From Candidatus Aenigmatarchaeota archaeon (GTDB lineage: Archaea; Aenigmatarchaeota; Aenigmatarchaeia; GW2011-AR5), in assembly GCA_016187335.1 (NCBI GenBank), contig JACPJW010000001.1:4547-68546 (forward strand): a DNA stretch of 64,000 nucleotides, in the 5' to 3' direction. Positions 8,075 through 61,962 of this stretch are shown here, piece by piece. The notes under the pieces are model-generated. The model did no database searches, had not been told where the DNA came from, and was given only the letters and a program-made list of their open reading frames with translations. Position numbers and translations under genes: made by a program. Numbering within the stretch: position 1 is the stretch's first letter; every line of letters begins with the position of its first letter.

Positions 8075-8884
8075 CTAAGATTTTTTTAGGGAGTTCAGAA
8101 ATGCTGCCGCAGCAATCCCTAATGAAATTCCAACGGGAGGAGTGAAAAGTAGAGAAAAAATGGAACTTAGAACTAAGGCCAGTATTATATACATTGGTCT
8201 TGGGTCTTTTTGCACACTACTTATTATTTTTTCTTTAAGAGTTTTTTCTCTCAGTTCCAAATCTGTAAATTTCTTTTCTCGAACTTTAATTTGATTTATA
8301 CTTTCTAGACTTCCAAGTGTGTTACGGTCAATGTATTTGTTGTTTAGAATTTCGATTGCAGTATCCTTTAAATTCGAAATTAGTGATTTATATATGATTA
8401 AAGAATCTTCTTTTAAAGCAATTTCAATTCTTTTCAAAAGTAATTCTATATTTCTTAGCGAATATAATATTGTAATGCTATTTTCATCCAATGTTTTTTC
8501 CATATCGATTTCATCAAAATAATCCTCCATAGTTTTTCTGAGTTGTCTAATGATATTCTCAATAGATTTTCGATTATTTTTACGAAGTTCTGATGATAAA
8601 CTGTAAAGATTGTAACTAATTTTTTTATATAAAGCAATTTTTTCTTGTGGAAATAATGAGTAAAGAAGTGCTCCGGTGAGTATAATGAAAAATATAAATG
8701 TAGAGGCAAAATTATTTTCGAATGTAGGGTTTGCAGTGTAAATAATCCTGTAAGGTGAAATAAAAGTTACTATCAAAGCAATTATAATTGTAAAAATAAG
8801 TATATTTCTTTTACGCTTTATGTTTTTGTCAATACGCTCTTTAATTTCATCTATTTTATCCTTTATTTCAGTTTCGTTTTCCAT
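8075..8884 (-). CDS. Hypothetical coiled-coil membrane protein (strongly AT-rich gene)
   Basis: 269 aa, Lys/Ile/Glu/Asn-rich. TM segments near residue 30-80 and at the C-terminus. Base composition is far more AT-rich than the flanking rnz and aspS. Confidence 0.45.
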   Translation of the reverse strand: MENETEIKDKIDEIKERIDKNIKRKRNILIFTIIIALIVTFISPYRIIYTANPTFENNFASTFIFFIILTGALLYSLFPQEKIALYKKISYNLYSLSSELRKNNRKSIENIIRQLRKTMEDYFDEIDMEKTLDENSITILYSLRNIELLLKRIEIALKEDSLIIYKSLISNLKDTAIEILNNKYIDRNTLGSLESINQIKVREKKFTDLELREKTLKEKIISSVQKDPRPMYIILALVLSSIFSLLFTPPVGISLGIAAAAFLNSLKKS

Positions 8885-13496: not shown

Positions 13497-13619
13497 AGCG
13501 GAGTGGAGCAGCCTGGAGTGCTCGTCGAGCAACTGGCACGAATGGCCCATAGGCATGCTCTAGGATACCCGAAAGCAATTATGCCGGGAAGGTCGGCAGT
13601 TCAAATCTGCCCTCCGCTA
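13497..13619 (+). tRNA. Intron-containing tRNA (anticodon not resolved)
   Basis: 5' acceptor AGCGGAG pairs with 3' CTCCGCT. D-arm GAGC/GCTC. T-arm GGCAG-TTCAAAT-CTGCC plus discriminator A. About 48 extra nt between D-arm and T-arm indicate one or more introns. Confidence 0.6.
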
Positions 13620-13824
13620 TATTTTTTCATTAAGACGAAAAGATGAAATGCCCTATGCAACCATTTTGCAGGCAGCATGAAAATGCTTCGCATCTTCGGT
13701 TTGCTTTCTGCAAGTTGAGCATTTCTTTTGCAATCGCTTCGTTTATCGGAAAGCGGTTTTCGCGATGGCAAAATGAATCAGTTTTTGTTTCTTCTTTTTA
13801 AGCGCTTTCTTTCAAGGTATAATC

Positions 13825-15066
13825 ATGAACCTTGTAGACAAGGCGCAGAAAATCTTGCAGCAGCCTGTATGCGACCACTGCCTGGGCAGGCAGTTCGGCC
13901 AGCTGCTGAGCGGCTTCGGGAACGAGCAGCGCGGCTCGATCATGAGAACGCTCGCGGCGATGGCAGTTGACAAGGAAGACTACAAGGGCGATATTGATTT
14001 TTCCAATTTCGCCGGCTATTCGTTTCATAATTTGGAACTGAAACAAACTTTTCCGAAAAGTTTGACCAAAAGGGAAACCGAAAAATGCTCCGTGTGCTTC
14101 GGCTTGTTTGAGAAGCTGCCGCAGTGGCTGAAGAAAATAGAAGCGAAGGCGAAGAATCAGGAGTTCAGGACATTCCTCATAGGCACCAAGCTGTCTTCAG
14201 CGCTTATCGGCGCAGAGGAGGATCTGTGGGAAAGGGTGGGGATAGATTACTGCGAGCCCCTCAAGGCTGAGATAAACAGGGAAATAGGAAAAACTGTGGA
14301 AAGGAAGTTCGGGGTCCGCTTTAACCCGAAAAATCCCGACGTGAATTTCATTCTAGACTTTGATTCCGGCAGCGTTAGCATAGAAGTAAATCCGTTGTTC
14401 ATCTACGGCGAATACCAGAAGCTCATACGAGGGATTCCCCAGACGAGATGGCCTTCGAGGAAGTACAGGACGAGCGTCGAGCAGATTATAGCAAAGCCTT
14501 TCATGAAAGCGACGCACGGCGCTGCGCATGCTTTCCACGGCATGGGCAGGGAAGACATAGACGCCCGCTGCCTGGCATGGCGCCCTTTTGTTTTGGAAAT
14601 ATCAAGGCCGCGCATAAGGTCGGTTGATTTGAAAAAACTCCCAAGGCAGATCCCGAAAAAAGTAAGGGTCAGGAATCTGAAGTTTTCAGGCATAAACGAA
14701 GTCCGTGCAATCAAGGAAGCCAAGGCGGATAAGACATACCGCGCCGTCGTGGAGTGCAGCGATAAAATAAATAAGAACGACTTGAAAAGACTTTCCGCCC
14801 TTGTTGCAACAATATACCAGAAAACCCCCCGGCGCGTTTTGCACCGCAGGGCGGACAAGGGGCGGAAGCGGGCTGTGCGCTCGATAAAAGCAAAATACCT
14901 CGGCCCCAAGAAGTTCCTGTTTGTTGTCAGGGGCGAGGGGGGGCTCTATATTAAAGAGCTTGTGAGCGGCGACGAAGGCAGGACAAGACCGAGCGTAGCA
15001 GAGCTGTTGGGAACAGCGTGCAGCTGCAGGGACCTGGACGTGATCAAGATACATGTCAAGAAGTAG
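13825..15066 (+). CDS. pus10: tRNA pseudouridine synthase Pus10 (Psi54/55)
   Basis: N-terminal Zn-ribbon motif VCDHCLGRQFGQL typical of archaeal Pus10. Length ~410 aa. Confidence 0.7.
   Translation: MNLVDKAQKILQQPVCDHCLGRQFGQLLSGFGNEQRGSIMRTLAAMAVDKEDYKGDIDFSNFAGYSFHNLELKQTFPKSLTKRETEKCSVCFGLFEKLPQWLKKIEAKAKNQEFRTFLIGTKLSSALIGAEEDLWERVGIDYCEPLKAEINREIGKTVERKFGVRFNPKNPDVNFILDFDSGSVSIEVNPLFIYGEYQKLIRGIPQTRWPSRKYRTSVEQIIAKPFMKATHGAAHAFHGMGREDIDARCLAWRPFVLEISRPRIRSVDLKKLPRQIPKKVRVRNLKFSGINEVRAIKEAKADKTYRAVVECSDKINKNDLKRLSALVATIYQKTPRRVLHRRADKGRKRAVRSIKAKYLGPKKFLFVVRGEGGLYIKELVSGDEGRTRPSVAELLGTACSCRDLDVIKIHVKK
14045..14063. repeat. Intragenic 19-bp palindrome AAACTTTTCCGAAAAGTTT
   Basis: Perfect palindrome inside the pus10 CDS with the same arms as the intergenic elements at 3863, 6577 and 52298. 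Confidence 0.6.
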
Positions 15067-15616
15067 CCGGCACAAATATTTCTCTTTTCCTTTCAAATCT
15101 TCTTCTGAGATCCGCCTGTATTGCCTTCATGTCTTCAGGCGTATTGTTCTGGTAAATTATTACCTCGCATCCCAATTCTTCCGAGCAATCCGGGCTGATA
15201 CGCTCCCATTGTGACAGCTGTTCGGATAAAAGCTCTAAGGATTTTCCTTCATCGCGCACTCTTCTTTCCAGAATACCTCTGTCTACATTTATCACCAGGA
15301 GGTATTTCTCATCAGAAAATCCTGTGATCAAGGCATTTGCGCGATCCTGCTGCCGGCGGTACGCTCCTTCCATTGCCAAATCGCGGCCGCCTATGAGCCT
15401 GATATTTCTTAAAATGTAGCTTGCTTTTCTGACCGCTGGGAATATTTCTTCATAGTCAGGCCATAAACGGAATTTTGCATAAGGAACTCCATATGCCTGC
15501 TCGATCATTTCATCATGGGATACACCGGCAAATGCCAATTCCTCCTGCAGAAATCTTCGCACAGTAGTCTTCCCTGAGCCGATAACACCTGTAACGAGCA
15601 CGAGCCTGGGGTACAT
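15056..15616 (-). CDS. P-loop NTPase / putative nucleotide kinase
   Basis: Walker A LVLVTGVIGSGKTT at the N-terminus when started at the internal Met (MYPRLV...). The longer ORF to 15832 would overlap rpl21e. Confidence 0.5.
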   Translation of the reverse strand: MYPRLVLVTGVIGSGKTTVRRFLQEELAFAGVSHDEMIEQAYGVPYAKFRLWPDYEEIFPAVRKASYILRNIRLIGGRDLAMEGAYRRQQDRANALITGFSDEKYLLVINVDRGILERRVRDEGKSLELLSEQLSQWERISPDCSEELGCEVIIYQNNTPEDMKAIQADLRRRFERKREIFVPATS

Positions 15617-15789
15617 AATTTCTAACCTGCGAATTACAAATTTCAACGCTTTTAAGGTTTTGTTTCGGATTAGTAAGTTGAATGGTGGTTCTCGGAGGTA
15701 TCGGAACTGCCTATCTTGACATAATAATTTGGGGTTCTGATTATCTTCAAAAACCAAAAGTTTTTGAGATGTCAAAATCATAGGAGATT

Positions 15790-16074
15790 TTGAACATGGT
15801 CCGGAAATCATACGGGAAGATGCGCGGCACAAGAAAGAAGCTGCGGATGCGCAGGAAGCCCACTTTGACAGGCTATCTGCGCGGATTTGATGAGGGGCAG
15901 AAAGTCCATATTAAGATTGTTTCCTCGGGCAGTTTTCCTCAGCCGAAATTCCACGGAATGACGGGAATGGTCGTTGAAAGGCGGGGAAAATCTTATGCAA
16001 TCCAGGTCCGCGACGGCAACAAATCAAAAACAGTTTACCTTAGGCCCGAGCATCTGGAGCCTGTGAAAAAGTAA
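15790..16074 (+). CDS. rpl21e: 50S ribosomal protein L21e
   Basis: MVRKSYGKMRGTRKKL...GMTGMVVERRG, the characteristic L21e sequence. Confidence 0.9.
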   Translation: MNMVRKSYGKMRGTRKKLRMRRKPTLTGYLRGFDEGQKVHIKIVSSGSFPQPKFHGMTGMVVERRGKSYAIQVRDGNKSKTVYLRPEHLEPVKK

Positions 16075-16150
16075 GTGAAACGGAAAGGAAATGGCAAGTT
16101 TGTAAGAATCTGGAAATTGCACTAATAAATCATTTCCATCTTGACAAAAG

Positions 16151-16489
16151 GTGAATGTTATCGAAATCCTCAGCGAAGAAGACGTGAACATTGTTGAAGC
16201 AAAGAGAATTCTGGAAGAGCGCAAAAAAGAAAGGGATCTGGTTTACGAGCAGAAAATCTGCCTGGAGTACCTGGAAAGGATACCCAAGCTCACGCAGAGG
16301 CAGGCCGAGGACCTGGCGCAAGAGCTGGCAAAGATACCGGTCATGAAGCCCAGGTACATAAACATCGTAATCAGCGTGCTGCCGGAAACGGAGGAAGAAG
16401 TGGATGCCTTGTTCAGCAAAGAAAGGACCAACCTCAAGAAAGAGGAAATAAAGCAGATTGCGGAAATCGTCAGCAAGGCGAGAAGGTAA
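16151..16489 (+). CDS. rpoF: DNA-directed RNA polymerase subunit Rpo4/F
   Basis: ~110 aa acidic protein matching the Rpo4 pattern (VEAKRILEER...LEYLERIPKL...). Conserved position downstream of rpl21e. Confidence 0.65.
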   Translation: MNVIEILSEEDVNIVEAKRILEERKKERDLVYEQKICLEYLERIPKLTQRQAEDLAQELAKIPVMKPRYINIVISVLPETEEEVDALFSKERTNLKKEEIKQIAEIVSKARR

Positions 16490-16618
16490 TTAACGGAATG
16501 GGGCGGCTTCGTTAATAATTCATGTTCATTCTCAGAATGACAGAATCAAGTCAAACTGAAACTTGGATCGTTAAGAAATCATATCATGCTTGATCAATTT
16601 CTTTGCCTTTTCCTGGAT

Positions 16619-19294
16619 TTACGGGCAGTATTGCCCCCATTCGTCCTCGGTAGGCTCCGCTCCCGAGCAGCAGGCCTGTCCTTCGCTTATTGAATAATAT
16701 TGATCCACACAGCTTACTTGAGTGAATTTGTCTTCGCCGCCGGTTCCGCTACCTCCGCCTGATGAGGGGCAGTAATAATATCCGTAATAATCCTGGACAG
16801 GCTGCTCGCCGGAACAGCACTGCTGCGTATACGGGTCAACATCCATGTAGTCTTCAACGCAGCCCGCAGGAACAAAGTCGTCCCAATAACCACCGCCTCC
16901 TGACGACGAGCTGCTTGTTTGCGCCAGGAGGTTGCTGGTCGCATCGTCCGCCCACACCCAGCATTGCGTTTCCGCGTCTTCGCCTTCAAATGTCTCGTAG
17001 CTCCCTATGCAATCGCCAGTGCTTTCTGAATCCACGCACCAGTAAGAGTATCCCGTATCACTGCCAACATCCGTAACAGCGCAACCGTAGAATGCATTTT
17101 CGCCTGCTGTCGCTCCGGCTGGTTCAAATCCCGGACCTGCTGCGAGCGTGTCGGAAGGGAGTTCCCTTTCTATCTCTGCTATAGTCCTGGTTCGTGTCGC
17201 TGCTGGTGTGCATGTTTCAAGGGTTCTGCTGCATCCCAATCCTCTGTAAACATACGCATCAGCGCCCATATCGTATTCGCATGAACATGCTCCGGCTGTT
17301 GTTCCTGTTTTGCTCTGCGCTGCTGCAACCGTGCACTCTCTGTCAGCATATAAAGTGGAAAGACAGTCGCTTCTTGCTCCGCTGGGATAGCACTGGTATC
17401 TTCCGGAATTATCTTTGCATAACTGGCTCGTTTCCTGCGCGGAAGTGGTTTTCTGCGCCGCTGGTGTTCCTTCCTCTACAACGCAATAGCTGTTCTTTGA
17501 AACAAGCTTCTTTCCTGCATCATTTGCATCACAGCATTTCGCACCTGAATCAAGGAACCCTCTTTCCTTCACGCAAGCCTGCCGGCCGTAAGGGAAGGAA
17601 GTAACGGACTCCGCTGTCTTGGGTTCTTCTGGTTTTGCTGACGTTCCTTTGTCTCCCAGCGATTCGCGTTTCGCTCCCCATGTCAGGCAGCACGTGTCGC
17701 CTTCGCCGGCTGTAGTGCATGACTGGGATTCCCTTGAAGACGAGGAGCTTCGCAGCCATCCCTTGCTTATTACGCAGTTCTTGTATGCTTCGCTGCTGCT
17801 GCTTATGCATTCGCCCTTGAGCTGGGCGCAGTATGTCCTCTTTGCTGCCGCCGTCGTTGCCGCGCCGCTTTTCTTGGCTTCGCATTCTTCTTTTGTTGAA
17901 TAAGATGACAAAGTCCTGCTGGGGTCGCATTCTGTAACGCACACTTCTGCGTATTCTCCCGAATCCGGCTCGTCAAGGGCGCAAAGCTTGTATTTCTGTT
18001 CTGCTGCGGCCTCGCCGTATTTGACAATAACAGCAAACCTGTCGTAAGTCTTGCCGTCAGCAACAAGCTGGACAGTACCGGTGTCAATGCTTGCTATCGG
18101 CCTGCTTCTCGCTGATGCCCTTGTCCTTTCCCGCAGGACTTCTTCCGTTGGCACGCTTCCCAGCACGTCGCCCGGTTTCAATGTATCTTTATACTTATTC
18201 AAAGCCGCCTGGCATTGAGAAAGCGCTGTGGAGCCTGCATAGCCTTCTGCTTTCAACACATCAAAGCCTGTATCGTACGGCAGTTCGCCGGAGCTGTCCC
18301 CGCATTTCTGCCTGCAGTATATCTTTTCCGTCAATGATGCTTCGTCGTACGCGGAGCACGCAAAAACGTTCTGCGACACTGCTACGGGTTTCGTTACTGT
18401 GGTGACAGGTCGCGCTGGCGCTTTTGTTGCTGGGGGTTTTGCAGTAGTTATCGTGGGTTTTTTAGCAGCTGCCTCGCTCTCACGTTGTTTTGTCCTTGCC
18501 TCGGCTTCCGCTTTCTGGCGGGCGTTAAGAACTGACGGTTCCGCAGGCTCTTTCTTTCCGCCTATGTTTATGCAGCATTCCTCTTCAAGTTTGCACTCCG
18601 AGACAGTTCCCTGAAACACTGTCCCGCCCAACTGGTCGCACCCGCTGGCTCCAAGTACAGTGTTCTTTATTCTTGTGCATCTCCCGTTAAGAGGCTGGCC
18701 GCTGCATTTTGGCGCAGAGCCTACGCGAATACAGCTTTCCCACCATGAACATCCCTCGCGGTCCAATCCTTCTCTTCCAAAGCCTAAGAATCTGCATTCG
18801 CCTTTCCTTCCGTACTGGTCTGTATCCGTGCACTTCAGTTTTTGAGAAGTCGGCGCGGCGGCGGGCGGCGGAGCAGGAGATGACGCCTTTGAAGCATCGG
18901 TCTTTGCCTTTTCACATTCAGCTTTTGCATAAGGTCCGCCTTTCGCGTACTGGGATTCGTCATTACAGCTTTCAAGGCAGTCAAATCTTTTGCTGTCCCT
19001 TACATATCCGCACAGGTAAAATTTCCCTGCAGTCTGCATCCCCGTTATCGGAATAGCCGCCTCTTCCTGCAGCGCCGCTTTTTCCTCCTGCGGCTGCAGC
19101 GCAAAGTATGTTCCTTTGTCCGTGTCTACCTTCACAACAGAATACGAAGCGAAGCCCGTCGCAGCAGAAAGATTTATCTGGGAATAAAAAATTGCCATCG
19201 CAACCAGCAGGGAAGCTGCAAGAATGTAGCGCGACGAGGGCACATTATGGCTCTTTTCGCCTTTGGAATGCTTTCTGTATTTCCGTGGCATCAA
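16619..19294 (-). CDS. Very large secreted Cys-rich surface protein (paralog family 2)
   Basis: N-terminal signal/TM. About 60 Cys. Thr/Ala/Pro-rich linkers. Shares blocks with 19419..21632 (LNARQKAEAEARTKQ, KLKCTDTDQYGRKGEC..GFGREGLDREGC, KIYCRQKCG, SQSCTTAGEGDTCCL). Confidence 0.6.
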   Translation of the reverse strand: MMPRKYRKHSKGEKSHNVPSSRYILAASLLVAMAIFYSQINLSAATGFASYSVVKVDTDKGTYFALQPQEEKAALQEEAAIPITGMQTAGKFYLCGYVRDSKRFDCLESCNDESQYAKGGPYAKAECEKAKTDASKASSPAPPPAAAPTSQKLKCTDTDQYGRKGECRFLGFGREGLDREGCSWWESCIRVGSAPKCSGQPLNGRCTRIKNTVLGASGCDQLGGTVFQGTVSECKLEEECCINIGGKKEPAEPSVLNARQKAEAEARTKQRESEAAAKKPTITTAKPPATKAPARPVTTVTKPVAVSQNVFACSAYDEASLTEKIYCRQKCGDSSGELPYDTGFDVLKAEGYAGSTALSQCQAALNKYKDTLKPGDVLGSVPTEEVLRERTRASARSRPIASIDTGTVQLVADGKTYDRFAVIVKYGEAAAEQKYKLCALDEPDSGEYAEVCVTECDPSRTLSSYSTKEECEAKKSGAATTAAAKRTYCAQLKGECISSSSEAYKNCVISKGWLRSSSSSRESQSCTTAGEGDTCCLTWGAKRESLGDKGTSAKPEEPKTAESVTSFPYGRQACVKERGFLDSGAKCCDANDAGKKLVSKNSYCVVEEGTPAAQKTTSAQETSQLCKDNSGRYQCYPSGARSDCLSTLYADRECTVAAAQSKTGTTAGACSCEYDMGADAYVYRGLGCSRTLETCTPAATRTRTIAEIERELPSDTLAAGPGFEPAGATAGENAFYGCAVTDVGSDTGYSYWCVDSESTGDCIGSYETFEGEDAETQCWVWADDATSNLLAQTSSSSSGGGGYWDDFVPAGCVEDYMDVDPYTQQCCSGEQPVQDYYGYYYCPSSGGGSGTGGEDKFTQVSCVDQYYSISEGQACCSGAEPTEDEWGQYCP

Positions 19295-19418
19295 ATATCA
19301 ATTGTTATTTGTGATAAGTGAAATAAATAGATTTTCGCCAAGACGGGAAGATGAAATACTGCAGCTTCGTTCCATGAATTTCCGTTTGACAATATCATAA
19401 GGAATAGAATTATGCCCT

Positions 19419-21632
19419 CTACGCGCCGCAGTAAAAGCTGTCCCACCCTTCGCCGCATCCCTGATAGACGGAGTAGTCGAGGTCATAATCGTAAACGCAT
19501 TCGCATGTATCCGTCTGGTCAGACGTCGGCACGAATTCGTCTCCGCCTTCAAATCCGCCGCCTTCGGCCGGAGTTCCCTGCCATTCTGCAGCAGGCGCCT
19601 TCAGTTCCCTGCCTGTTTTTTGCTCGCATTCTTCTTTAGGCATGTCTGATTCAACAACAGTATCCCAGCCGCAATCAGATGCTTCAGAGCAGTATTTAAC
19701 ATTATAGACATCGCCGTAGTAATCCGTCTCCTCGTATGAGCACAGCACCCTCGGCTCAAACTTCAGGCAGCACGTGTCGCCCTTGCCTGCTGTAACGCAC
19801 GACTGCGAAGCTGATGAATATGAAGGGCTTGTCAGTTCCAATCCTGTATAACATGAATCAACGCTTGAATCCACGCACCTGCCTATGAGGTCCTCGCAAT
19901 AAGTCCTTTCTGCAGCAGGCTTCGCAGGCTCGGCCGGTTTCGCGGGCTCTGCAGGTTCAGCAGCTTCGGCAAATCTGATGATTACTGCTGTCCTGTCGTA
20001 AGTATTTCCTTCAACAGTCAGCGTCTGGTAGCCCAGGTCAACGCTTTTTATCAAGTCGCCGTGAAACAGCGACCCAGGACTCAATTCATCTTTGTATTTC
20101 TTCAAAGCGACCTGGCAGTCAGAAAGGTAATCAAATCCATTTGACCTCATGATGCCTGTATCGTAAGGGTCGTTGAATATTCCTTCCAGGGCGTCCCCTC
20201 CGTTCTCCGGCCCGCACTTCTGCCTGCAGTATATTTTCTGCAGCAGCTTATCAGGTAGCAGACTCCCCGGCGGTTCCCCTTCATATCTAGTGCACCCGTA
20301 AAACGTCGTGGCGCGCAGGACTTCGGACGTGGTCGTCGTTGCGCCGCGCGTAGGGGTTGGCGCGGGCGCTGAAGGTTTTGTAGCCGCTCTTGAAGGCACT
20401 GACGATTCAGTACATAAAACATTTCCCTGTTCATCATTAACAGGATTGAGTCCTCCGCAGCATGACTCCCCTGCTTTTGTTATGTAATCACCTTTCTTCA
20501 CGCAGGAAGGTCCTGGTGCTTCAGGCACGCCCGTTTCTCTTTCCAGCCTTTTCTTGACAACTTCGCATTGAGCAAGGGTGCTGAATCCGCTCTCAAATCC
20601 TTTCACACTTACTTGGTAATCCGTAGCTGTCTTGTCACACTCAAAACCGCAGTAATACGGAACGTTTGTCACTAAAAACGTGGTTCTGCATAATTTATAA
20701 TAGCGGGAAACAGAAGGCGCCGCAGGCACTGCAGAAGATTTTACGCACTGCCTGTTTTTGGAAACCAATCCTTCGCAACAGCTGTCTCCAGACCTTTCAA
20801 TAAACTGTCCTTCCTTGACACAAAACGTTCTTGCAGCAGGCTGCGCTGCTGCAGGCTTCACGCATTGTTTATTTTTGGAAACAAGACCTTCGCAGCATGC
20901 ATCCTTGGCTCTTTCAATATATTGTCCTTCCTTGACGCAGAATTGTGCCGGTGGCTGCGCTGATGGTGTGGTAACTTTGTAGCATGCACTCCAGAAATCA
21001 CATCCCTCGCGATCTTTTAGTTGTTCCCTGCCAAAGAAGCCTTGCCAAGTACATTCTCCTACAACACCTTTGGAATCCTCTTGCCAGCATTTGAGTTTAG
21101 CAGAAACCGAAGACTGTGCAGCTGCTGACGGCTGTGCTTGTGATAGCCCCGCGGATGCTGCAGCTCCCTGGGTGCTCTCGCTCTGCCTTGTTCTCGCCTC
21201 GGCTTCTGCCCTTTGGCGGGCGTTAAGTCCCGATGCTGCGGATGGAGTTGATGGCTGCACTGATGGAAGCGCTCCTCTAAGACAGCATGCACCTGTATAT
21301 CCGCATGAGCCAGCTACCTCGCTGTCAGGACATGGCGAACCAAGAAGAAAGTAGGGTTTTCCTTTGCACTCAGCGCTGATTCTTGGATTATTCGCGCATG
21401 TTTTTTGCTGAGGCCGTGTTCCGGCTTCTTCCGTCGCAAATCCCGTCACCGGCACCGCAGCCTTTTCTTCCTGCACGTCAACGTAAAAAGAGCCCTGGGC
21501 AAGCTCGGGGTGCGCTTCGGTAAAATCTGTCACAAGCCCCGTCACGGAGCCTTTCACGTCTAAAGCCGAATAGGCAAACGCGAGGGAAACAAATAAGAAA
21601 AGCACCCCTAACTCTTTCAGAATGCGGGACAT
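19419..21632 (-). CDS. Very large secreted Cys-rich surface protein (paralog family 2)
   Basis: Signal peptide. Shares conserved Cys-containing blocks with 16619..19294. The upstream ~25 nt (21633-21660) are similar to 19295-19320. Confidence 0.6.
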   Translation of the reverse strand: MSRILKELGVLFLFVSLAFAYSALDVKGSVTGLVTDFTEAHPELAQGSFYVDVQEEKAAVPVTGFATEEAGTRPQQKTCANNPRISAECKGKPYFLLGSPCPDSEVAGSCGYTGACCLRGALPSVQPSTPSAASGLNARQRAEAEARTRQSESTQGAAASAGLSQAQPSAAAQSSVSAKLKCWQEDSKGVVGECTWQGFFGREQLKDREGCDFWSACYKVTTPSAQPPAQFCVKEGQYIERAKDACCEGLVSKNKQCVKPAAAQPAARTFCVKEGQFIERSGDSCCEGLVSKNRQCVKSSAVPAAPSVSRYYKLCRTTFLVTNVPYYCGFECDKTATDYQVSVKGFESGFSTLAQCEVVKKRLERETGVPEAPGPSCVKKGDYITKAGESCCGGLNPVNDEQGNVLCTESSVPSRAATKPSAPAPTPTRGATTTTSEVLRATTFYGCTRYEGEPPGSLLPDKLLQKIYCRQKCGPENGGDALEGIFNDPYDTGIMRSNGFDYLSDCQVALKKYKDELSPGSLFHGDLIKSVDLGYQTLTVEGNTYDRTAVIIRFAEAAEPAEPAKPAEPAKPAAERTYCEDLIGRCVDSSVDSCYTGLELTSPSYSSASQSCVTAGKGDTCCLKFEPRVLCSYEETDYYGDVYNVKYCSEASDCGWDTVVESDMPKEECEQKTGRELKAPAAEWQGTPAEGGGFEGGDEFVPTSDQTDTCECVYDYDLDYSVYQGCGEGWDSFYCGA

Positions 21633-21859
21633 CAGATATCAGATGTTATTTGTGAGACCCAGAACTTAAAGTTTTTTTGCAGAATTGCCGGAATCTCTTC
21701 GCATCTAGGACAGGATTTAGACCTCAAGCAGCTTGAAGCACAAAGTGCTTCGGTTTGTTTGCCTTGATTAACAACCTTTTAAAAAGACTATTATCTAATA
21801 ACATGAAAACGGTAAAATCACAAAAATGATAGACATGAAAAAGAGGGCGATGGTTTGCT

Positions 21860-22414
21860 ATGAAAGAGGAGCATTGCGTAATCCTGGATTTCCTGCCGAA
21901 CGGATACCCGGATCGGCGTCACGCAGAACCGGTAGCCCAGGCTTTAGGCACCTCGTTCTTTTCCTTGCTTGAGCTTGTCCCGAGGGAAGGCATCAATTTA
22001 TCGCAGGAGGAAGAAGTCTACATCGGCGAAGGCAAGCGCGACAAGATAAGGTTCATCAAGGGGCAGCTGCAATACAACGAACTGACAAACATGGCGCAGA
22101 ACACGCTGGAAGACGTCATGAACAAGATAGTGAGCGGCAGCGAGGCCCAGTTCGTGGATTTTTTCAACAAGGCGAAAATGATCACCCCAAGGATGCACCA
22201 GCTGCAGTTATTGCCGGGCGTTGGAAAAAAGCACCTCAGCGACTTGCTGGACGAGCGGAGGAAAAAACCTTTCGAGAGCTTTGCTGACATAAACCAGCGC
22301 GTCAAGTTCTTCCCCGACCCGAAAAAAACAATCATAGCGCGGGTATTAGAGGAATTGCGCAACGACGAGAAGTACTGCTTATTTGTCAACAAGCCGAAGA
22401 AGAGGGAGTACTGA
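21860..22414 (+). CDS. DUF655-family protein (HhH-containing, conserved partner of rpl21e/rpoF)
   Basis: VILDFLPNGYPD...LLPGVGKKHLSDLLDERRKKPFESFADI matches the archaeal DUF655 family. Confidence 0.65.
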   Translation: MKEEHCVILDFLPNGYPDRRHAEPVAQALGTSFFSLLELVPREGINLSQEEEVYIGEGKRDKIRFIKGQLQYNELTNMAQNTLEDVMNKIVSGSEAQFVDFFNKAKMITPRMHQLQLLPGVGKKHLSDLLDERRKKPFESFADINQRVKFFPDPKKTIIARVLEELRNDEKYCLFVNKPKKREY

Positions 22415-22646: not shown

Positions 22647-22901
22647 TCAATCTTCTATAGCGAATCTTATTTTTTCTCTTATGGGTATTTTCCTTATATC
22701 CGTTGGAAGTTCTTCCCCGTCTTTTACAAGGCTCTCGCAATAAAGCCTTATGGCTTCCCTTACGTTTTTCTTTGCTTCAGCCAGCGTGTCGCCTTCCGTT
22801 ATGCAACCCGGCAGAGAAGGAACCAAAACAGTATAGCCGCCTTCCGGTTGAGGCTCAAATATAACAGTGTATTCCAGATACTTCATTTTTTTCTTTCCCA
22901 C
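22647..22901 (-). CDS. hicB: HicB-family antitoxin
   Basis: YTVIFEPQPEGGYTVLVPSLPGCITEGDTLAEAKKNVREAIRLY, the HicB/UPF0150 signature. Confidence 0.75.
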   Translation of the reverse strand: MGKKKMKYLEYTVIFEPQPEGGYTVLVPSLPGCITEGDTLAEAKKNVREAIRLYCESLVKDGEELPTDIRKIPIREKIRFAIED

Positions 22902-22951
22902 AATTTCACCTGTAACTACATGCAGTCAGAAACTTATAAGCATATTTTCCT

Positions 22952-23221
22952 TCACGCGCAGCTGCACGCGCAGTAGTACACCGTATCGTTTGCTCCGGTC
23001 ACGTTCGCATTGTAGAAGGTGAGGTTGTTCCCGGTGCATGTGGTGTTGCACCAGCTGCTGCACATCTTGTTGGGAGTGAACGTGTCGTCTATGAGGGCAG
23101 CGGCGTAGAAGTCGCTTTTCAATAATTCAAGAGAGAATTCGCGCAAATTTGCAGATGATACGCACCCGGAAACAAGGAGAACCGCAGCAAGCGCGATTAA
23201 ATATTTCACAAAGACTTTCAT
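22952..23221 (-). CDS. Small secreted Cys-rich lipoprotein
   Basis: Internal Met start gives MKVFVKYLIALAAVLLVSGC lipobox. Mature part carries eight Cys (CSSWCNTTCTG...CACSCA). Confidence 0.4.
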   Translation of the reverse strand: MKVFVKYLIALAAVLLVSGCVSSANLREFSLELLKSDFYAAALIDDTFTPNKMCSSWCNTTCTGNNLTFYNANVTGANDTVYYCACSCA

Positions 23222-23256
23222 AAAGACTATCTTAAGGTGCAAAAATTTTAAAGACT

Positions 23257-24063
23257 TTAGAAACCGCTCTCCATCAGAATTTTCTCCGGGTTTTCCAAGA
23301 ACATTTTTTTCCAGATAACTTTTCCTTTCCTCCTGGTGTAATTTTTTACAATATAATATCCTATAGAATAGCCTGTCCACATTGGATATCTTACGCTGCC
23401 GTAAAGCACTTCCTGACGAAGATTGGGATTCTTGGAATTCAGCTTGTTTTTCATTCTTCTGAAAAAAGTTCTTGCTTCCTTTTCAGTAAGTGCTTTCGAC
23501 CAAGGGCTTGGCTTTCCGCTTAGAACAGATTCGCAAAAATCCTCTGCGATACCTTCATCTATCATCGCTTCTAATAGCGTTTTATTTTTGTGATAACCAG
23601 ACGTTGCGGCATGCGCATATTCGTGGCATATAGTGTTTGCAAGGGATTTTTGCCATTTGGATTTCGGATGGACAAAAATTGTAATTACATTTTTCCACAC
23701 GCAGAATCCGGAAGAACCTGACAAATTTTCCTTTACAAATCTGCTGTTCGTCGGAAAAATGAAAATCTTAATGTCAGAAAGCGGAACAGCTTTCTGGCAT
23801 TTTTTCAGCGCAGCAGTGATTATCCTTACTATTCTTTTTTCATCATTTTTTCCGAATGGTGGAATTCTGCCTCTGCCAATGCCCCACAAAAGATGCTTTC
23901 TCAACGCGGATTTTTGCCTGAACCCTGCATAGCCGGTATCAGAAAAGAAAAGAATTTCTTTTAGAACATCTTCAATAAAATCTTCTGTTCCGTCTTCATG
24001 ACTATTGATGAAAGTATATAGATGACTGTCGTAGATTCCTGCATTTATTTTGTAGTGCTTCAT
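23257..24063 (-). CDS. Putative Zn-dependent protease (DUF2268-like)
   Basis: HExxH-like ICHEYAHAAT motif at ~residue 135 of a ~270 aa protein. Confidence 0.45.
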   Translation of the reverse strand: MKHYKINAGIYDSHLYTFINSHEDGTEDFIEDVLKEILFFSDTGYAGFRQKSALRKHLLWGIGRGRIPPFGKNDEKRIVRIITAALKKCQKAVPLSDIKIFIFPTNSRFVKENLSGSSGFCVWKNVITIFVHPKSKWQKSLANTICHEYAHAATSGYHKNKTLLEAMIDEGIAEDFCESVLSGKPSPWSKALTEKEARTFFRRMKNKLNSKNPNLRQEVLYGSVRYPMWTGYSIGYYIVKNYTRRKGKVIWKKMFLENPEKILMESGF

Positions 24064-24073
24064 GAAATTATGT

Positions 24074-26464
24074 TTATTTCTTCCTTCTTATTTTTATTTT
24101 CCTTTTTCCGCCGGCTGTTTTCTTCTGCATGTAGAGCCAGTAGCCGAACGCCGCGATAAACAGCAGGCCGATCAGCTGCACAGAGCTGAATTCCGCAAGC
24201 CCTTCTGCGAATATGAGAACGGACCCCACAGCCTCGTACTTCTTCCCGCTGCTCCTGCTCGTCGCCGTGTATTTTATTCCGTACGAGCCGGAGCGGGCGG
24301 CCGTATCCATAAAAACTGAAACGCCCTTGCTGCCCAGTGCCGGAACATCAAGCACGGCTGCGTCGTTGTTGCCCTGGACAATTGAGCAGCCAGAAGGATT
24401 AGGGCATTCCGCGTGCATCCACTGCAGCGGCGTCACGGGGTCGTCCGACGGCTTTGAAGCTAAATCGAACGTTGCAGCTTCCAGGGGATTCCACACAGTG
24501 ACGTCGTAAGCCTTCTTATCCAGCTCGCCCGCGCTGAACCGCTTCTCAACAGGCACAACAGTGACGCGCGGCGTGCACGTGACAAAAAAGCGGAACTGGT
24601 TCACGGCGCTTAATCCCTTGTCAGGGTCCCTTGTCTTGTTCGAAAGTATGTACAAAGTATGGTAAGCGTCGCAGCTTAACGCTGCTGTAGGCGGGCTTCC
24701 GACAAATGCGTTGTCAAAATCATTCCAGCTCAGCTTTTTCCACTCAAACCTGTCTATGTCGTAAGACGCCTCGCAGTCGGCATCGTTGCATTCCTTCAGC
24801 GATGACGGATTCCCCAGAATGCCCTGCGTGACGCGCGCCAGAAAGTTGACGTTGGTGCCTCTGGTCAGGTTCGGCTCGCCTGTTGGCGTATAAGGAAACA
24901 ATTGGTTGACAACGTCAGGATATTCAACTGTGGTGCGCAAATAGCGGTTTGTCACATTCAGGTTCTTGCATCCAGGCGGAACGCACGGTGATGGCTGACC
25001 CGGCGGTATGGGTCCCGGAGGCTTCGGCTCGTTGGCAGCTGAGTATGTCACGCCGAATGTTCCGGGCTTCGTGGAGTTCCACGCCCCGGTATTGTCAACA
25101 GCAACTACGTAGGCGGTGTAGCTGCCTACGGCGAGCGATGATGTATCATAATAAGTGCACCTGTAGATGTTCCCGGAAAACAGCAGCATTTCACAGAACT
25201 TCGCCTCGCATCCGGTCGCCGTCACGTTGTTGCACGCCTTAACAGCGGAAACGGCAACATCGTCTGTCACGTCCGCGGAAAATATCACCTCGTTGCCTTG
25301 CATCACCATGCCGGGCACTATCGTGAAATTGCTTATCTGCGGCAGCAGGTTCACGCCGAAGGTGTCAGAGCCGCACCCCTCCAGCCCCTCGCTCTCAACG
25401 CATCCTGTTATTTCAGATTTGTACCTGCTCGTGTCAATCTCAACAACCCATCTCTTGTTGCTGTCGTCATAATTGCTGTTCTGGTTCCAGTTTTCCGCAA
25501 GCAGATAGTTCCTTTCCTTCGGCGTGCCTTTGTCTATGGTTATGCTTCTTATCGTAGTATCTGTCCTCGTGCAGTCCCTGCGGGCGCCCTGCGCATCGAC
25601 AAGGTAGCACGATATGTACGCGTAGACCTTCTCGCCCTCGCGCGGGTATTTGTTGGAAACAGCTGTTGTCACGTAGAGCCGCGCGGTTCCCTGCTCGAAG
25701 CGCTGCACAGTGAAGGTCGCTGTCTTTGTCGGCGAGAGCAGCGTCCCGTCGAAGGCCCTGCAATATACCGTCTTCGCCCCGGCTGAATTGCCCCACGGGT
25801 TCGTGTCAAACGTGCACGAAGGGTTCTGCGGCACGTAGCTGCTCGTGCACGCGTTGTTGCTTCCTTCAGCCGTTCCGCACTCCAGCCGGATGTTCTGGCC
25901 GTCCGGATCCGAGGCGCTGCTCGATATCGTTCCCCTTTCGTTATTGTCGGCGTTGATGACCGAAGGCGACACGCTTATCCAGTCAAGTGCCGGCGCCCTG
26001 TTCGGCTGCGATATGCACTGGCCATTTACGCACTGGTATTCGCACGCCTGGCAGTTCGATGACTGCGCTCTTGTTTGTGTCACGCTGTAGGTGCACTGGC
26101 CCTGGGTCGAGCTGCATGAATAATCCCTGTATTCCTGGTTCTGGAAAGTGCACTTCTGGTTGCCGGAGCATCCCTGGTAAGTTCCGCCGGTGTCGAACCA
26201 TCCGTTCTCGCGGCATTGCCACGTAACAATTAACGTGCACGAGCCGCAGTCGGCAGCGCATCTGCCGCAGTCTTCGTTGAACGTGAACCACATGCCGCTT
26301 TCGCATATGCCGTTGCCGCATAGAGGGTCCTCCGTGCCGCCGCGTCCCCCGTCATGGTCGGCGTAAACGATGCTTACTGAAAACATGACGGCAACAAAAA
26401 TGATTATTGTTGCTAAAAAAGCTGGCTTAGGGACCGCAATAACTTCATCCTTTTCGCGTGTCAT
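24074..26464 (-). CDS. Large Cys-rich cell-surface protein with C-terminal membrane anchor
   Basis: N-terminal signal. CGNGICE..CGRCAADCGSC module. Many Cys pairs and Ig/beta-sandwich-like regions. C-terminal TM followed by a basic tail (KKTAGGKRKIKIRRKK). Confidence 0.6.
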   Translation of the reverse strand: MTREKDEVIAVPKPAFLATIIIFVAVMFSVSIVYADHDGGRGGTEDPLCGNGICESGMWFTFNEDCGRCAADCGSCTLIVTWQCRENGWFDTGGTYQGCSGNQKCTFQNQEYRDYSCSSTQGQCTYSVTQTRAQSSNCQACEYQCVNGQCISQPNRAPALDWISVSPSVINADNNERGTISSSASDPDGQNIRLECGTAEGSNNACTSSYVPQNPSCTFDTNPWGNSAGAKTVYCRAFDGTLLSPTKTATFTVQRFEQGTARLYVTTAVSNKYPREGEKVYAYISCYLVDAQGARRDCTRTDTTIRSITIDKGTPKERNYLLAENWNQNSNYDDSNKRWVVEIDTSRYKSEITGCVESEGLEGCGSDTFGVNLLPQISNFTIVPGMVMQGNEVIFSADVTDDVAVSAVKACNNVTATGCEAKFCEMLLFSGNIYRCTYYDTSSLAVGSYTAYVVAVDNTGAWNSTKPGTFGVTYSAANEPKPPGPIPPGQPSPCVPPGCKNLNVTNRYLRTTVEYPDVVNQLFPYTPTGEPNLTRGTNVNFLARVTQGILGNPSSLKECNDADCEASYDIDRFEWKKLSWNDFDNAFVGSPPTAALSCDAYHTLYILSNKTRDPDKGLSAVNQFRFFVTCTPRVTVVPVEKRFSAGELDKKAYDVTVWNPLEAATFDLASKPSDDPVTPLQWMHAECPNPSGCSIVQGNNDAAVLDVPALGSKGVSVFMDTAARSGSYGIKYTATSRSSGKKYEAVGSVLIFAEGLAEFSSVQLIGLLFIAAFGYWLYMQKKTAGGKRKIKIRRKK

Positions 26465-27965: not shown

Positions 27966-28418
27966 ATGCCAGTTTCAGGACAATTTCCAAAACACCATAT
28001 AGACACATCTGTAATTATAGAGCCTGAAAATACCGAAGACGGAAGGTTCTGTAAACGTTATCTACAAAAACTCAATTATAATTATACCGGTATTTTATCA
28101 TTTCCAGTATTAAGCGAGATTTTTGTTATTCTCAATTCTTTGGAGGATTTCAATGAAAGATACGATTTTATAGAACCTCTGCTGGCTATGGTTAAATCAA
28201 GAAATATAGAGTTCTACGCTCCGAAAGATATAGGAAATCTTCTTAACAGCATTAAATCAACTGAGAAAAGAATTGGTTTTGTAGACAGCGAAATAGTTGC
28301 CTGCGCAGCTGAAGATAAAGCTGATGCCTTGATAACCCTTGATAGAGATTTGATAAACAACAAGAACCTGGAAAAGTTATTGAGAATAAGGATACTTCAT
28401 CCTAAAGATTTGCTGTAA
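27966..28418 (+). CDS. PIN-domain ribonuclease (VapC-like), no adjacent antitoxin
   Basis: Acidic PIN residues (IDTSVII...AAEDKADALITLDRDL). AT-rich relative to flanks. Confidence 0.65.
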   Translation: MPVSGQFPKHHIDTSVIIEPENTEDGRFCKRYLQKLNYNYTGILSFPVLSEIFVILNSLEDFNERYDFIEPLLAMVKSRNIEFYAPKDIGNLLNSIKSTEKRIGFVDSEIVACAAEDKADALITLDRDLINNKNLEKLLRIRILHPKDLL

Positions 28419-28793: not shown

Positions 28794-29906
28794 CTAAGCC
28801 GCTCTGTAAAGATTAATGTATTTTCCTTCTTCGATTCCGGTGACAACAATGCTTCTTTCTGGAACAAGCAAGCCGTCGCTTCTTTCCGAAAAGCCAAAAA
28901 GCTGCTCTAAAAATCTTCCTGCCTCTTCTAGAAATTCTCTTCGGCCCTCCTGCCTGTACAAGTCGGGCCTGCAAGGGTTTTTGAAAGGCGGAAAATATCT
29001 TGGCTCTGCTCTGAATGTTTTCTGTTCAAGGAAATTCTTTAAATCTCGTTTTTTCGGATCTAAATCTATTTTTCCTTTTTTACCAGACAGATAGGCATGA
29101 GCCCATTCTACTGCCCTGACTACTCGCGGCGTATATACAGATTCAGAATCAAAGTCTTCTCCTTTCTTGAATGAGGGATCCGTTCCCAATTCAAGTTCAT
29201 TAACTCTTTCTTCCGTTTCTTTCGCAACATTCTCAAAATCTACGTTAGGATTACTGCCATCATAGATAACAATGTTCCCTTTATCATCCCTAACAAAAAG
29301 CAGGAAGGGATTTACAGTCCTGACGACGTTGTATCTTTTGTTAGGATAACCTTTGTCTGTCCATTTTTGGTATCTTCCTCCCCGAAACCACGTTGGTACG
29401 ATACAGCCGAAATGAAGAACGTAATCTCCTTTTCTTGTACCTGTATTGCCGCCTTCACCTAGTTGAGTTGTTGGGGAAACATTTTGACCTAAAAATACGT
29501 TCCATGAATTCAAGTGCTGGTAATCTGTAAGATGTCCTAAACCGTGGCCAACTGTTACACTTTTGATTGAACCAAAACGGGTTTTGTAAGATGGTGGATC
29601 ATCTCCCCGATAAACCACAATCCCATTTCCTGCCGCCATAACTGGCGTGTAAGGCGGGCGCTCCCTTACTTTAAAATCTACTCCTCCCGGATCTATACCT
29701 AAATGGTTTTCATAACCCCCGCCTTCTATTATTACCGGTTGTCCTGGAACACATGCAGCAGGAGAAGAATAAGCGGATGGATTTCCAATAGCCTTTATAT
29801 CGGCATAAGACGGTCTAACCCCAAGTAAAGTTATACCATCGCCGATACTGCCTGCGACCAAGATTTTGACAACTTCTCTGCGCGTATACGAAGGACCTGA
29901 ACTCAT
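28794..29906 (-). CDS. M23-family metallopeptidase (LytM-like), Tat/Sec-exported
   Basis: RREVVKILVAG twin-Arg-like signal. HLGIDPGG (HxxxD) ... GHGLGHLTDYQHL ... GNTGTRKGDYVLHFG M23 motifs. Confidence 0.7.
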   Translation of the reverse strand: MSSGPSYTRREVVKILVAGSIGDGITLLGVRPSYADIKAIGNPSAYSSPAACVPGQPVIIEGGGYENHLGIDPGGVDFKVRERPPYTPVMAAGNGIVVYRGDDPPSYKTRFGSIKSVTVGHGLGHLTDYQHLNSWNVFLGQNVSPTTQLGEGGNTGTRKGDYVLHFGCIVPTWFRGGRYQKWTDKGYPNKRYNVVRTVNPFLLFVRDDKGNIVIYDGSNPNVDFENVAKETEERVNELELGTDPSFKKGEDFDSESVYTPRVVRAVEWAHAYLSGKKGKIDLDPKKRDLKNFLEQKTFRAEPRYFPPFKNPCRPDLYRQEGRREFLEEAGRFLEQLFGFSERSDGLLVPERSIVVTGIEEGKYINLYRAA

Positions 29907-29976
29907 AGATAATATTTATTTTTCATTACATTTAAAGGTTTCGTTTTTAATTACTTAAAAGAAGTAACGTTTTAAA

Positions 29977-30627
29977 TTATGGTTCACCACCACTGGTAAG
30001 TTGCTCACCTGTGCCACCGCCGGTTCCGCCAGAATTAGTGCCCTTTCCTCCTCCGCCAGCTGGCCCGCTCCCGGTCTGTATTTGAGGATCTACATTCCCT
30101 CCTCCGCTTGGCCCCCCTTGCTCGCTCCCGCCCCCCGGGCACCCCGTAAACGTCACCGTGCATGACCTGCCGCGCTGCACCACTGGGCCTGTGTCCGTGC
30201 AGCCGGTGGAGTAGCCCCTAATGTCGGCTTCAGAACCTGATCTTACTAGCTGAGCACCCCACCCATTGTCCGTCTCGAATGCTTGGCAGTCGCCGCTGCC
30301 GCATTGCTGCATAGCATAAGCAGCGCTTGCGCACGTTCCTGCCCTGTCGCAGCCGCCTTGGTCTTTGAACGATTCATATCCTGTTTCTGTTATTTGTGAA
30401 CCTCCACCAAACGAGCTGACAACAGCATTAGCAACCGCGCTTATTGCATCAACAATAGCATCAAAAAAATCTCTTACTGCGTCCCAAAACCCGAATTTAA
30501 CAAATTTTTTCCCGGATAGGTCTTCCGTATTTGTATTAAAAAGGAAAGATGAAACTGCACCTATTGCGTATATGAAAGAAGTCATGACAAGCAATGCCAC
30601 GAGAGAGGCAAGAAACTCGTTTCTCAT
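29977..30627 (-). CDS. Secreted Gly-rich Cys-containing protein
   Basis: Signal/TM at the N-terminus. Eight Cys in the middle. C-terminal GGxGG low-complexity tail. Confidence 0.4.
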   Translation of the reverse strand: MRNEFLASLVALLVMTSFIYAIGAVSSFLFNTNTEDLSGKKFVKFGFWDAVRDFFDAIVDAISAVANAVVSSFGGGSQITETGYESFKDQGGCDRAGTCASAAYAMQQCGSGDCQAFETDNGWGAQLVRSGSEADIRGYSTGCTDTGPVVQRGRSCTVTFTGCPGGGSEQGGPSGGGNVDPQIQTGSGPAGGGGKGTNSGGTGGGTGEQLTSGGEP

Positions 30628-30690
30628 GGTAATAGTATGAATAAAGCCGCAATAAATAGTTTTTGAACTAACCTTTGAAAACTTTGGATT

Positions 30691-31827: not shown

Positions 31828-31862
31828 CTTTTCAATGTTCATCTTATTTAGTTTTTTGTTAA

Positions 31863-34958: not shown

Positions 34959-34998
34959 ATGGCTGATTTTCTCTAGACGGCCCTCATCGTTAATGCAG

Positions 34999-61740: not shown

Positions 61741-61962
61741 CGACTAAAGTCGGTGGTATTTTGGAGAAATACCACATATCTTATTTGTGGATTATGTTAT
61801 ACAGAACATACCACTCATAATACCACCATCTGAAGATAGGTGGTATGTTCTTGTATCAATGGCAAAAAACAATCTACCCATTTTACCCATTCTTTCACAA
61901 AGCATTACACAGGAAAAGCCGATTTCATCTGTAAAAATCAGGGGGATCTTCATACTATATGT

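Follow-up and report, generated by a model that had tools for sequence, protein, structure and literature searches.

Paired, fast-evolving cysteine-rich proteins of predicted exported type occupy the rpoF-DUF655 slot in a small subclade of Aenigmarchaeota

Archaea of the DPANN group, with their tiny genomes, are believed to live attached to other cells, and the molecules through which they make contact are almost unknown. The surface-layer (S-layer) proteins described from archaea, DPANN members included, are rich in immunoglobulin-like (Ig) and PKD domains, heavily N-glycosylated, and often anchored at the C terminus, and the DPANN candidates for such proteins are lineage specific, without detectable homologues (bioRxiv 10.1101/2023.10.27.564410). 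Here, we describe a gene pair of a different design in a 64-kb stretch of an Aenigmarchaeota genome (918-kb contig JACPJW010000001.1; “the window” is this whole stretch). The two genes, Cys891 and Cys737, lie on the minus strand between rpoF and the gene for a DUF655 protein. They are genuine genes and paralogues of each other, conserved within one clade, modular in design, preceded by a shared promoter element, and orphans outside the clade. In an initial reading of the DNA, hereafter the original prediction, they were taken for a lineage-specific acquisition into a core informational locus and for a candidate cell-surface or host-interaction module.

We compared the window proteins by tblastn with 14 loci anchored on DUF655, all from species-representative genomes. 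Genes for Pus10, ribosomal protein L21e, RpoF, and DUF655 form a contiguous string in two Aenigmarchaeota loci (L002 and L008) and two Methanolinea loci (L012 and L014), with a gap of about 100 bp between RpoF and DUF655. RpoF was not detected in a further Methanolinea locus (L013), and RpoF and DUF655 are adjacent in two Micrarchaeota loci (L010 and L011). Because the string is contiguous in L002, L008, and Methanolinea, the adjacency of RpoF and DUF655 is, as far as gene order tells, ancestral and interrupted in the window by a 5.4-kb segment. All four genes of the canonical string are present here too, collinear and in the canonical order, but RpoF and DUF655 stand 5.4 kb apart, and an AAA-type gene lies between Pus10 and L21e. 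The L21e-RpoF-DUF655 linkage on which the original prediction relied is thus conserved in related archaea, although within the lineage it is looser than supposed: DUF655 precedes L21e in a permuted order in four Aenigmarchaeota loci (L003 to L006), and L21e-RpoF is inverted in L007. In these last five loci (L003 to L007), a homologue of a 796-aa (amino acid) protein of the window, Cys796, adjoins DUF655.

Database homologues of the pair were confined to two contigs, L015 (Logan SRR22388212) and L016 (GCA_016198625.1). The order in L015 is malic enzyme-EMC6-RNase HII and, farther on, Pus10-HicBA-L21e-RpoF, after which the opposite strand carries a nucleotidyltransferase pair, a 943-aa protein, a DUF433/DUF5615 pair, and an 849-aa protein truncated where the contig stops. 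In L016, Pus10-L21e-RpoF is followed by genes for 219-, 976-, and 1,000-aa proteins on the opposite strand and then by DUF655 and the Cys796 orthologue. All-against-all BLASTP paired Cys891 with the 943-aa protein (60% identity over 512 aa) and Cys737 with the 849-aa fragment (65% over 332 aa), while the 976-aa and 1,000-aa proteins matched both more distantly (33 to 39%). Most core proteins of L015 and L016 are 76 to 93% identical to those of the window (L21e is 64% identical to its L016 counterpart), and the DUF655 genes of L001 to L008 show 66 to 71% identity to the window's.

The pair thus occupies the same slot, in the same orientation, in three genomes. Its location is shared with L015 and L016, and the core proteins of these two genomes have diverged to 76 to 93% identity. 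Any acquisition therefore predates that divergence, and the pair was already in place in the ancestor from which a small Aenigmarchaeota subclade descends. Acquisition into a core locus therefore stands insofar as the segment interrupts the string and is restricted to a clade, but it was neither recent nor specific to this genome. The same intervening genes as an ancestral arrangement, which the original prediction had itself named as counterevidence, were found in L015 and L016, though only for the subclade. Since family members are 33 to 65% identical between genomes, against 76 to 93% for most flanking core proteins, the pair evolves much faster than its neighbor genes.

We aligned five upstream regions (those of the two window genes, one from L015, and two from L016). 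Every family gene whose 5′ flank is available (n = 5) is preceded by a shared element, AAAnCTaTTTATT-N8-TCACAAAtaA...TGATG, which lies at about 3320-3365 in L015 and at about 2370-2417 and 5475-5522 in L016. Pattern searches of the 64-kb window found the full element only at Cys891 and Cys737, and it is kept in three genomes though the coding sequences are highly diverged. A box of the B recognition element (BRE)/TATA type stands about 25 to 35 nt ahead of the ATG. The box implies that each gene has a promoter of its own, that the transcripts are leaderless or have short leaders, and that the two genes are regulated in common.

The paralogy of the two large proteins was upheld by BLASTP (E = 5e-19 and 3e-23), as was their description as Cys-rich and of exported type. 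Cysteine makes up about 6% of each (5.8% and 6.0%, compared with 0 to 3.5% for every other window protein), and each has an N-terminal hydrophobic segment (residues 18 to 42 in Cys891 and 4 to 28 in Cys737) predicted to be a signal peptide or anchor; neither has a C-terminal hydrophobic segment. Both proteins are acidic (net charges −23 and −26). The cysteines cluster in fours or sixes with recurring spacing, and every module holds an even number. We distinguished module A (C-x11-22-C-x3-9-C-x15-33-C, with aromatic residues ahead), module B (KLKC...GEC...REGC..W..C), a 6-Cys module (C-x6-9-C-x5-12-C-x8-18-C-x5-15-CC), module D (four Cys; C-x12-13-CC-x9-15-C), and a C-terminal module F (CxC...C...C). 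The Cys columns are invariant in the alignments of the 6-Cys module (n = 16 copies), A (n = 27), and D (n = 8). Module counts vary greatly between orthologues: the L015 849-aa fragment carries eight 6-Cys modules against two in Cys737. Eleven A modules occur in the L016 1,000-aa protein.

The modules are joined by low-complexity linkers rich in Ala, Pro, Ser, Thr, Glu, and Lys, and the Cys-free stretches between the 4-Cys and 6-Cys frameworks measure 10 to 70 residues. Two Cys-free regions are kept between the paralogues. One is a beta-rich block at about residues 400 to 430 of Cys891; the other follows the signal segment (residues ~45 to 90 in Cys891 and 28 to 66 in Cys737), has the consensus ..TG[LF]...G[ST][FY][YF]...EEKAA[LV]..P[IV]TG[MF], and may represent either a pro-region or a segment for attachment. 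Hidden Markov models of the modules matched no other open reading frame (ORF) in the window or in L001 to L016. Kinship of the pair with two neighboring Cys-rich proteins, Cys796 and Cys142, was rejected, as they share no modules.

Both proteins have even Cys counts, 52 in Cys891 and 44 in Cys737, from which we predict 26 and 22 disulfides. A membrane-anchored DsbA-like thioredoxin encoded elsewhere in the window (Table 1) indicates a capacity for extracytoplasmic disulfide formation. A 226-aa ORF that overlaps the DsbA-like gene (34936-35616, plus strand; 3.5% Cys, no Pfam match) could encode a partner that reoxidizes it.

The six family proteins contain 1, 0, 0, 0, 0, and 0 N-x-S/T sequons in about 5,400 residues. 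Their composition would give 17.5, and none of 2,000 shuffles was as low. For the two window proteins alone (one sequon in Cys891, none in Cys737, about 4.6 expected), the depletion is not significant, and Cys796 is not sequon depleted. Sequon avoidance would make sense only for exported proteins exposed to the N-glycosylation machinery, so the depletion argues for export.

No known family accounts for either protein; the BLASTP and profile searches called for by the original prediction leave the pair an orphan outside the subclade. Full-length Cys891 and Cys737 matched nothing in Pfam or NCBIfam, and a PDB sequence search with a full-length protein gave one chance match only. HMMER over 1.84 billion representative proteins returned the query itself, P0002, and, weakly, P0003; P0001 to P0003 were all that was found. 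Word-indexed searches gave one non-self relative per query protein, and two scans of metagenome contigs and one of viral contigs revealed no relatives. The 6-Cys profile found nothing among 5.8 billion proteins, a weak negative since the word index gave only 15 candidates. At E ≤ 10, the only Pfam match to any of ten isolated modules was a subthreshold one of module D to Toxin_7.

Composition and constraint also set the pair apart. Its overall GC content (0.52 to 0.53) is above that of the flanks because first and second codon positions are GC rich in proteins with so much Ala, Gly, Pro, Ser, and Thr. GC content at third codon positions (GC3) is 0.49 to 0.52 in the pair versus 0.60 to 0.72 in the core genes of the window, and codon usage therefore does differ from that of the flanks, the comparison that the original prediction had proposed. 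The corresponding values are 0.50 to 0.53 versus 0.46 to 0.62 in L015 (where the lowest core value belongs to L21e) and 0.55 to 0.57 versus 0.76 to 0.85 in L016. That GC3 stays close to 0.5 whatever the bias of the host looks like a trait of the family and not like an unameliorated foreign signature; it might result from weak selection on codons, from fast turnover, or from selection on how these exported proteins are translated. Large parts of the family proteins are unalignable. In the alignable blocks, the ratio of nonsynonymous to synonymous substitution rates (dN/dS) is 0.08 to 0.28, against 0.03 to 0.12 for flanking core genes, values that are rough given saturated dS (≥1.1), and purifying selection appears to act on the alignable modules.

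We postulate that the pair encodes coregulated, fast-evolving extracellular binding or contact proteins that arose at the base of the subclade and have been kept in the rpoF/DUF655 slot, an account we hold to be somewhat probable. Two paralogues, each transcribed independently from a promoter of the same type, would have originated at the base of this small Aenigmarchaeota subclade, either by acquisition or by invention within the lineage. Each product would be exported by way of an N-terminal Sec-type signal peptide or signal anchor. Outside the cell, it would fold into a chain of 10 to 12 small disulfide-locked modules with Ala/Pro/Ser/Thr-rich linkers and stay unglycosylated. Such a chain might act as an extended, protease-resistant binding or contact protein with the surface of a host cell or partner as its target, and gain, loss, and divergence of modules would retune its specificity. 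We infer that the products are exported, form disulfides, and reside outside the cell, and the role in binding or host contact is inferential above all; a cell-surface or host-interaction function, as originally predicted, is plausible on these sequence features.

Several points weigh against this account. The episymbiotic lifestyle of this metagenome-assembled genome is assumed from DPANN generally. The proteins are without a C-terminal anchor or a recognized cell-wall-binding domain, so that they could be retained at the surface only by an uncleaved N-terminal anchor or some other interaction. AlphaFold2 (AF2) models are of low confidence, with a predicted local distance difference test score (pLDDT) of 33 for full-length Cys737 and 54 for one 6-Cys module. 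Low GC3 in all three genomes argues against very high expression, and repeated foreign input into the family is possible. The family is also known from only three genomes, and evolutionary inference rests on few points.

Among the alternatives, we give most room, while still considering it unlikely, to the possibility that the proteins are secreted multimodule effectors, in which minidomains resembling defensins, knottins, or inhibitors form arrays that would be deployed intact or after linker cleavage against host or competitor cells, as multiheaded protease inhibitors or as membrane-active agents. The absence of any membrane anchor besides the signal segment agrees with secretion, and the modules themselves offer some likenesses. 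At E ≤ 10, the 6-Cys profile had exactly two matches in the PDB: Defensin-BvL (2mn3) at E = 0.0031 and, at E = 0.14, a carboxypeptidase inhibitor (2k2z). In both, the alignment covers the G-x-C motif and all six Cys. We take 2mn3 to be a platypus beta-defensin-like peptide and 2k2z to be a domain of the tick carboxypeptidase inhibitor, both presumably with the beta-defensin fold, a three-stranded beta-sheet with C1-C5, C2-C4, and C3-C6 disulfides. As the tick inhibitor shows, such domains can sit in tandem and act as inhibitors. Against a small beta-defensin alignment (six sequences plus two PDB fragments), hhalign aligned the 6-Cys module over 36 columns with P = 0.0013 and a probability of 18.8%, compared with P = 0.28 (0.2%) for module A and P = 0.025 (2%) for module D as controls. 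Module A found nothing in the PDB. Module D weakly matched toxins (Toxin_7, 18.2 bits with a gathering cutoff of 27; Xt3a, E = 0.05); with a subthreshold match and four Cys only, it does not qualify as an inhibitor cystine knot.

All of these likenesses are nevertheless subthreshold. None of the four 6-Cys modules, tried singly, matched any Pfam family, defensins included, at E ≤ 10, and the AF2 model of the 6-Cys module (pLDDT 54) gave only meaningless matches in a Foldseek search of the PDB. The modules are not cationic (net charges 0, +1, +2, and −3), and their loops are longer than those of beta-defensins, with 6 to 13 residues between C2 and C3 and 9 to 19 between C3 and C4. Like the domains of 2mn3 and 2k2z, the 6-Cys module has six Cys ending in CC and a Gly-x-Cys at the second Cys; unlike them, it is embedded in multimodule proteins of 700 to 1,000 aa, and homology is unproven. 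We therefore treat the resemblance as a lead and not as a classification. That the 6-Cys modules are genuine beta-defensin-fold domains, set in tandem arrays in secreted proteins with which an episymbiotic archaeon binds, inhibits, or permeabilizes components of the host envelope, is improbable. Trans-defensins have been described only from animals (PMC11561630); were this reading true, the modules would extend the fold to prokaryotes for the first time.

A slightly poorer candidate is a structural role in the cell envelope, as S-layer or S-layer-associated proteins. The pair does consist of large proteins of exported type, each with its own TATA-type promoter, and the narrow distribution of the family resembles that of the DPANN S-layer candidates cited above. 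Near-complete absence of sequons, lack of a C-terminal helix, and lack of any Pfam domain, Ig and PKD types included, all count against this role. The codon usage of the pair is less biased than that of core genes, and rapid module turnover would be unusual in a lattice-forming protein. Cys796, unrelated to the pair, is the better envelope or S-layer candidate. This Cys-containing neighbor (24074-26464, minus strand) has transmembrane segments at both its N and C termini as well as a basic tail, and its conservation extends across Aenigmarchaeota, with 78% identity in L016 (2-1645) and 29 to 37% in L003 to L007, where it stands directly beside DUF655.

That an island or the cargo of a mobile element was recently acquired by horizontal transfer into the rpoF-DUF655 spacer of this genome seems no better than improbable. 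Such an origin would fit the GC3 of both genes, which is below that of the core, the uninterrupted string in L002 and L008, and the clear uptake by neighboring slots of accessory genes, toxin-antitoxin genes among them, which vary from genome to genome. The shared site in L015 and L016 has, however, already largely refuted the “recent” part, and low GC3 is found alike in three genomes whatever that of the host (0.55 versus 0.80 in L016). Nor did we detect the traces of such an event. The direct repeats looked for at the segment edges gave no meaningful bracketing pair: the best was an 18-nt match at 83%, at chance level, with its partner within the coding sequence of DUF655. The 64-kb window contains no tRNA, and Pfam and NCBIfam searches of the ORFs revealed no integrase, transposase, or recombinase within or beside the segment. 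Presence is not patchy among close relatives, as both L015 and L016 carry the pair and it is absent only from the more distant loci, and no donor lineage emerged, since no homologue outside the subclade was found in 1.84 billion proteins or in metagenome and viral contigs.

The remaining idea, that the proteins bind metal like metallothioneins or act as redox buffers, is suggested by about 6% Cys with CC and CxC motifs, but even Cys counts in fixed 4-Cys and 6-Cys frameworks spaced by Cys-free stretches, an export signal, a DsbA-like protein encoded nearby, and the absence of CxxC from both window proteins argue for structural disulfides in place of metal clusters, and we rejected a metallothionein-like function as very improbable.

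Seven assemblies made independently from a single sample series are 100% identical over the segment from 13498 to 22045, with no strain variation among them, and all three junctions are spanned by one contig in that set. An assembly chimera is excluded on these grounds. Noncoding or spurious ORFs are likewise ruled out by conservation, dN/dS below 1, and invariant Cys. The intervening ORFs lie where the original prediction had placed them, and the two large genes are the only plausible coding sequences between 16490 and 21860, all other ORFs of at least 60 aa overlapping them in other frames. The identities of the flanking genes were upheld by Pfam matches of L21e, Rpb4/RpoF, and DUF655, all above their gathering scores.

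Two gene starts needed revision (Table 1). For L21e, the end given by the original prediction stands; the ORF list starts it at a TTG (15790), and an ATG at 15796, given by independent gene calls (L017; 92 aa), is the more probable start. The Cys891 gene was likewise correctly identified, but its longest ORF (16619-19294, 891 aa) begins with TTG, and the start is most likely the ATG at 19291, one codon later, because this agrees with the NCBI protein, with independent gene calls, and with the register of the paralogue's leader. “Giant,” as the two proteins had been called, is an overstatement for 737 to 890 aa. Given the gene orientation, the separation from rpoF would leave DUF655 dependent on a promoter of its own in the divergent intergenic remainder.

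Table 1. Positions of the gene pair, its modules and promoters, the interrupted gene string, and the DsbA-like gene in the window
Feature	Position	Strand	Details
Pus10 gene	13825-15066		Upstream of L21e; Pfam
Ribosomal protein L21e gene	15796-16074	+	Left part of string; PF01157, E = 1.7e-19
Rpo4/RpoF gene	16151-16489	+	PF03874 (Rpb4/RpoF), E = 1.3e-6, 29.1 bits (cutoff 25.6); 93% and 86% identity to L015 and L016 orthologues
Convergent intergenic spacer	16490-16618		From rpoF stop to stop of 890-aa gene; left boundary of segment
Cys891 gene (NCBI HYW26_00100)	16619-19291	-	890 aa; 52 Cys; 12 modules: four A (including a variant), one B, two 6-Cys, three D, one unclassified 4-Cys, one CxC-type F
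Cys891 6-Cys copy 2	17678-17839	-	RTYC...GDTCCL subtype; best-conserved block between paralogues and orthologues
Cys891 6-Cys copy 1	18563-18715	-	aa 194-244; C-x9-C-x12-C-x14-C-x5-CC
Cys891 promoter/leader	19292-19335	-	BRE/TATA-like AAAATCTATTTATT, then TCACAAATAA (19305-19314), short leader, ATG; repeat D8
Cys737 gene	19419-21632	-	737 aa; 44 Cys; 10 modules: two 6-Cys, one B, three D, three A (including a variant), one C-terminal CxC-type F
Cys737 6-Cys copy 2	19758-19907	-	RTYC...GDTCCL subtype
Cys737 tandem duplication of D	20745-20939	-	C-x14-CC-x10-C; 117-nt period; 75 to 88% DNA identity
Cys737 6-Cys copy 1	21273-21407	-	
Cys737 promoter/leader	21633-21680	-	TCACAAATAA at 21646-21655, A-rich TATA-like box upstream; repeat D8
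Divergent intergenic remainder	21681-21859		Upstream of DUF655 gene
DUF655 gene	21860-22414	+	Right part of string; PF04919, E = 3.9e-62; 83% identity to L016 orthologue
DsbA-like thioredoxin gene, membrane anchored	34317-34958	+	Pfam Thioredoxin_4, E = 1.8e-30; DSBA, E = 2.8e-15

Accessory genes of the toxin-antitoxin type entered the locus later, at different junctions in each genome. At the Pus10/L21e junction, the window has an AAA/zeta-toxin-like kinase gene (15056-15832, minus strand), whose long ORF overlaps the L21e start and for which independent calls give 186 to 241 aa. The same junction holds HicAB in L015 (8149-8589) and a 45-aa ORF in L016 (10110-10247), which suggests that genes of the toxin-antitoxin type land here repeatedly. 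Between DUF655 and the Cys796 gene, the minus strand of the window (22647-24063) encodes a HicB antitoxin, the 142-aa Cys-rich membrane protein Cys142, and a DUF2268 Zn-protease, with GC3 of 0.39 to 0.55. Because DUF655 and the 796-aa gene are adjacent in L016, this block was inserted later, in the window's lineage alone.

Two other features of the window were observed. Four genes have very low GC (0.28 to 0.34; GC3, 0.21 to 0.30) in a window of 47% GC and were probably acquired recently: 8075-8884 and 45792-47252 on the minus strand and 27966-28418 and 61787-62245 on the plus strand; one of them encodes a PIN-domain protein. At 28794-32987 (minus strand), a gene for a secreted M23 peptidase adjoins those for a 216-aa secreted protein and two tandem paralogues of 383 and 374 aa, one of which was scanned and had no Pfam match. 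This may be another extracellular gene cluster.

The locus shows that a universally conserved informational string can tolerate, and keep for long, a foreign-looking insert, with junctions nearby that serve as repeated landing sites for toxin-antitoxin genes. About 0.5% of a genome of ~0.9 Mb is spent on two coregulated, predicted-exported proteins, an orphan family with an architecture unusual for Archaea. We infer a design (disulfide locked, unglycosylated, modular, and fast evolving) unlike that of the usual glycosylated Ig-fold surface proteins of archaea. If these are contact or effector proteins, they would offer a concrete target for studying the interaction of Aenigmarchaeota with their hosts and an archaeal case of the “cysteine-rich mosaic” design otherwise found mainly in eukaryotes.

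Among described systems, the putative surface proteins of Nanobdella aerobiophila come close in setting: like the pair, they are large, carry a signal peptide, are restricted to a narrow clade, and are encoded in a very small genome (bioRxiv 10.1101/2023.10.27.564410). They are presumed to mediate contact between symbiont and host, and the same is presumed here. The pair differs from them on every point of fold, sequons, and anchoring that could be tested: the Nanobdella proteins have Ig/PKD, pectin-lyase, or lectin-like folds, 14 to 49 N-glycosylation sites, and often a C-terminal transmembrane helix, whereas the pair consists of strings of 4-Cys and 6-Cys minimodules with almost no sequons and no C-terminal anchor. 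The Cys-rich mosaic surface proteins of eukaryotic parasites, such as the variant-specific surface proteins (VSP) and high-cysteine membrane proteins (HCMP) of Giardia, differ in other ways. Their CxxC repeats, C-terminal transmembrane helix, and conserved tail are absent from the pair, which has no sequence relationship to them, and they form a large variant repertoire where the pair amounts to two genes per genome. What the pair would share with VSP and HCMP is the working principle only, that of an exported, disulfide-stabilized, protease-resistant, and fast-diversifying coat or contact protein of a host-dependent organism.

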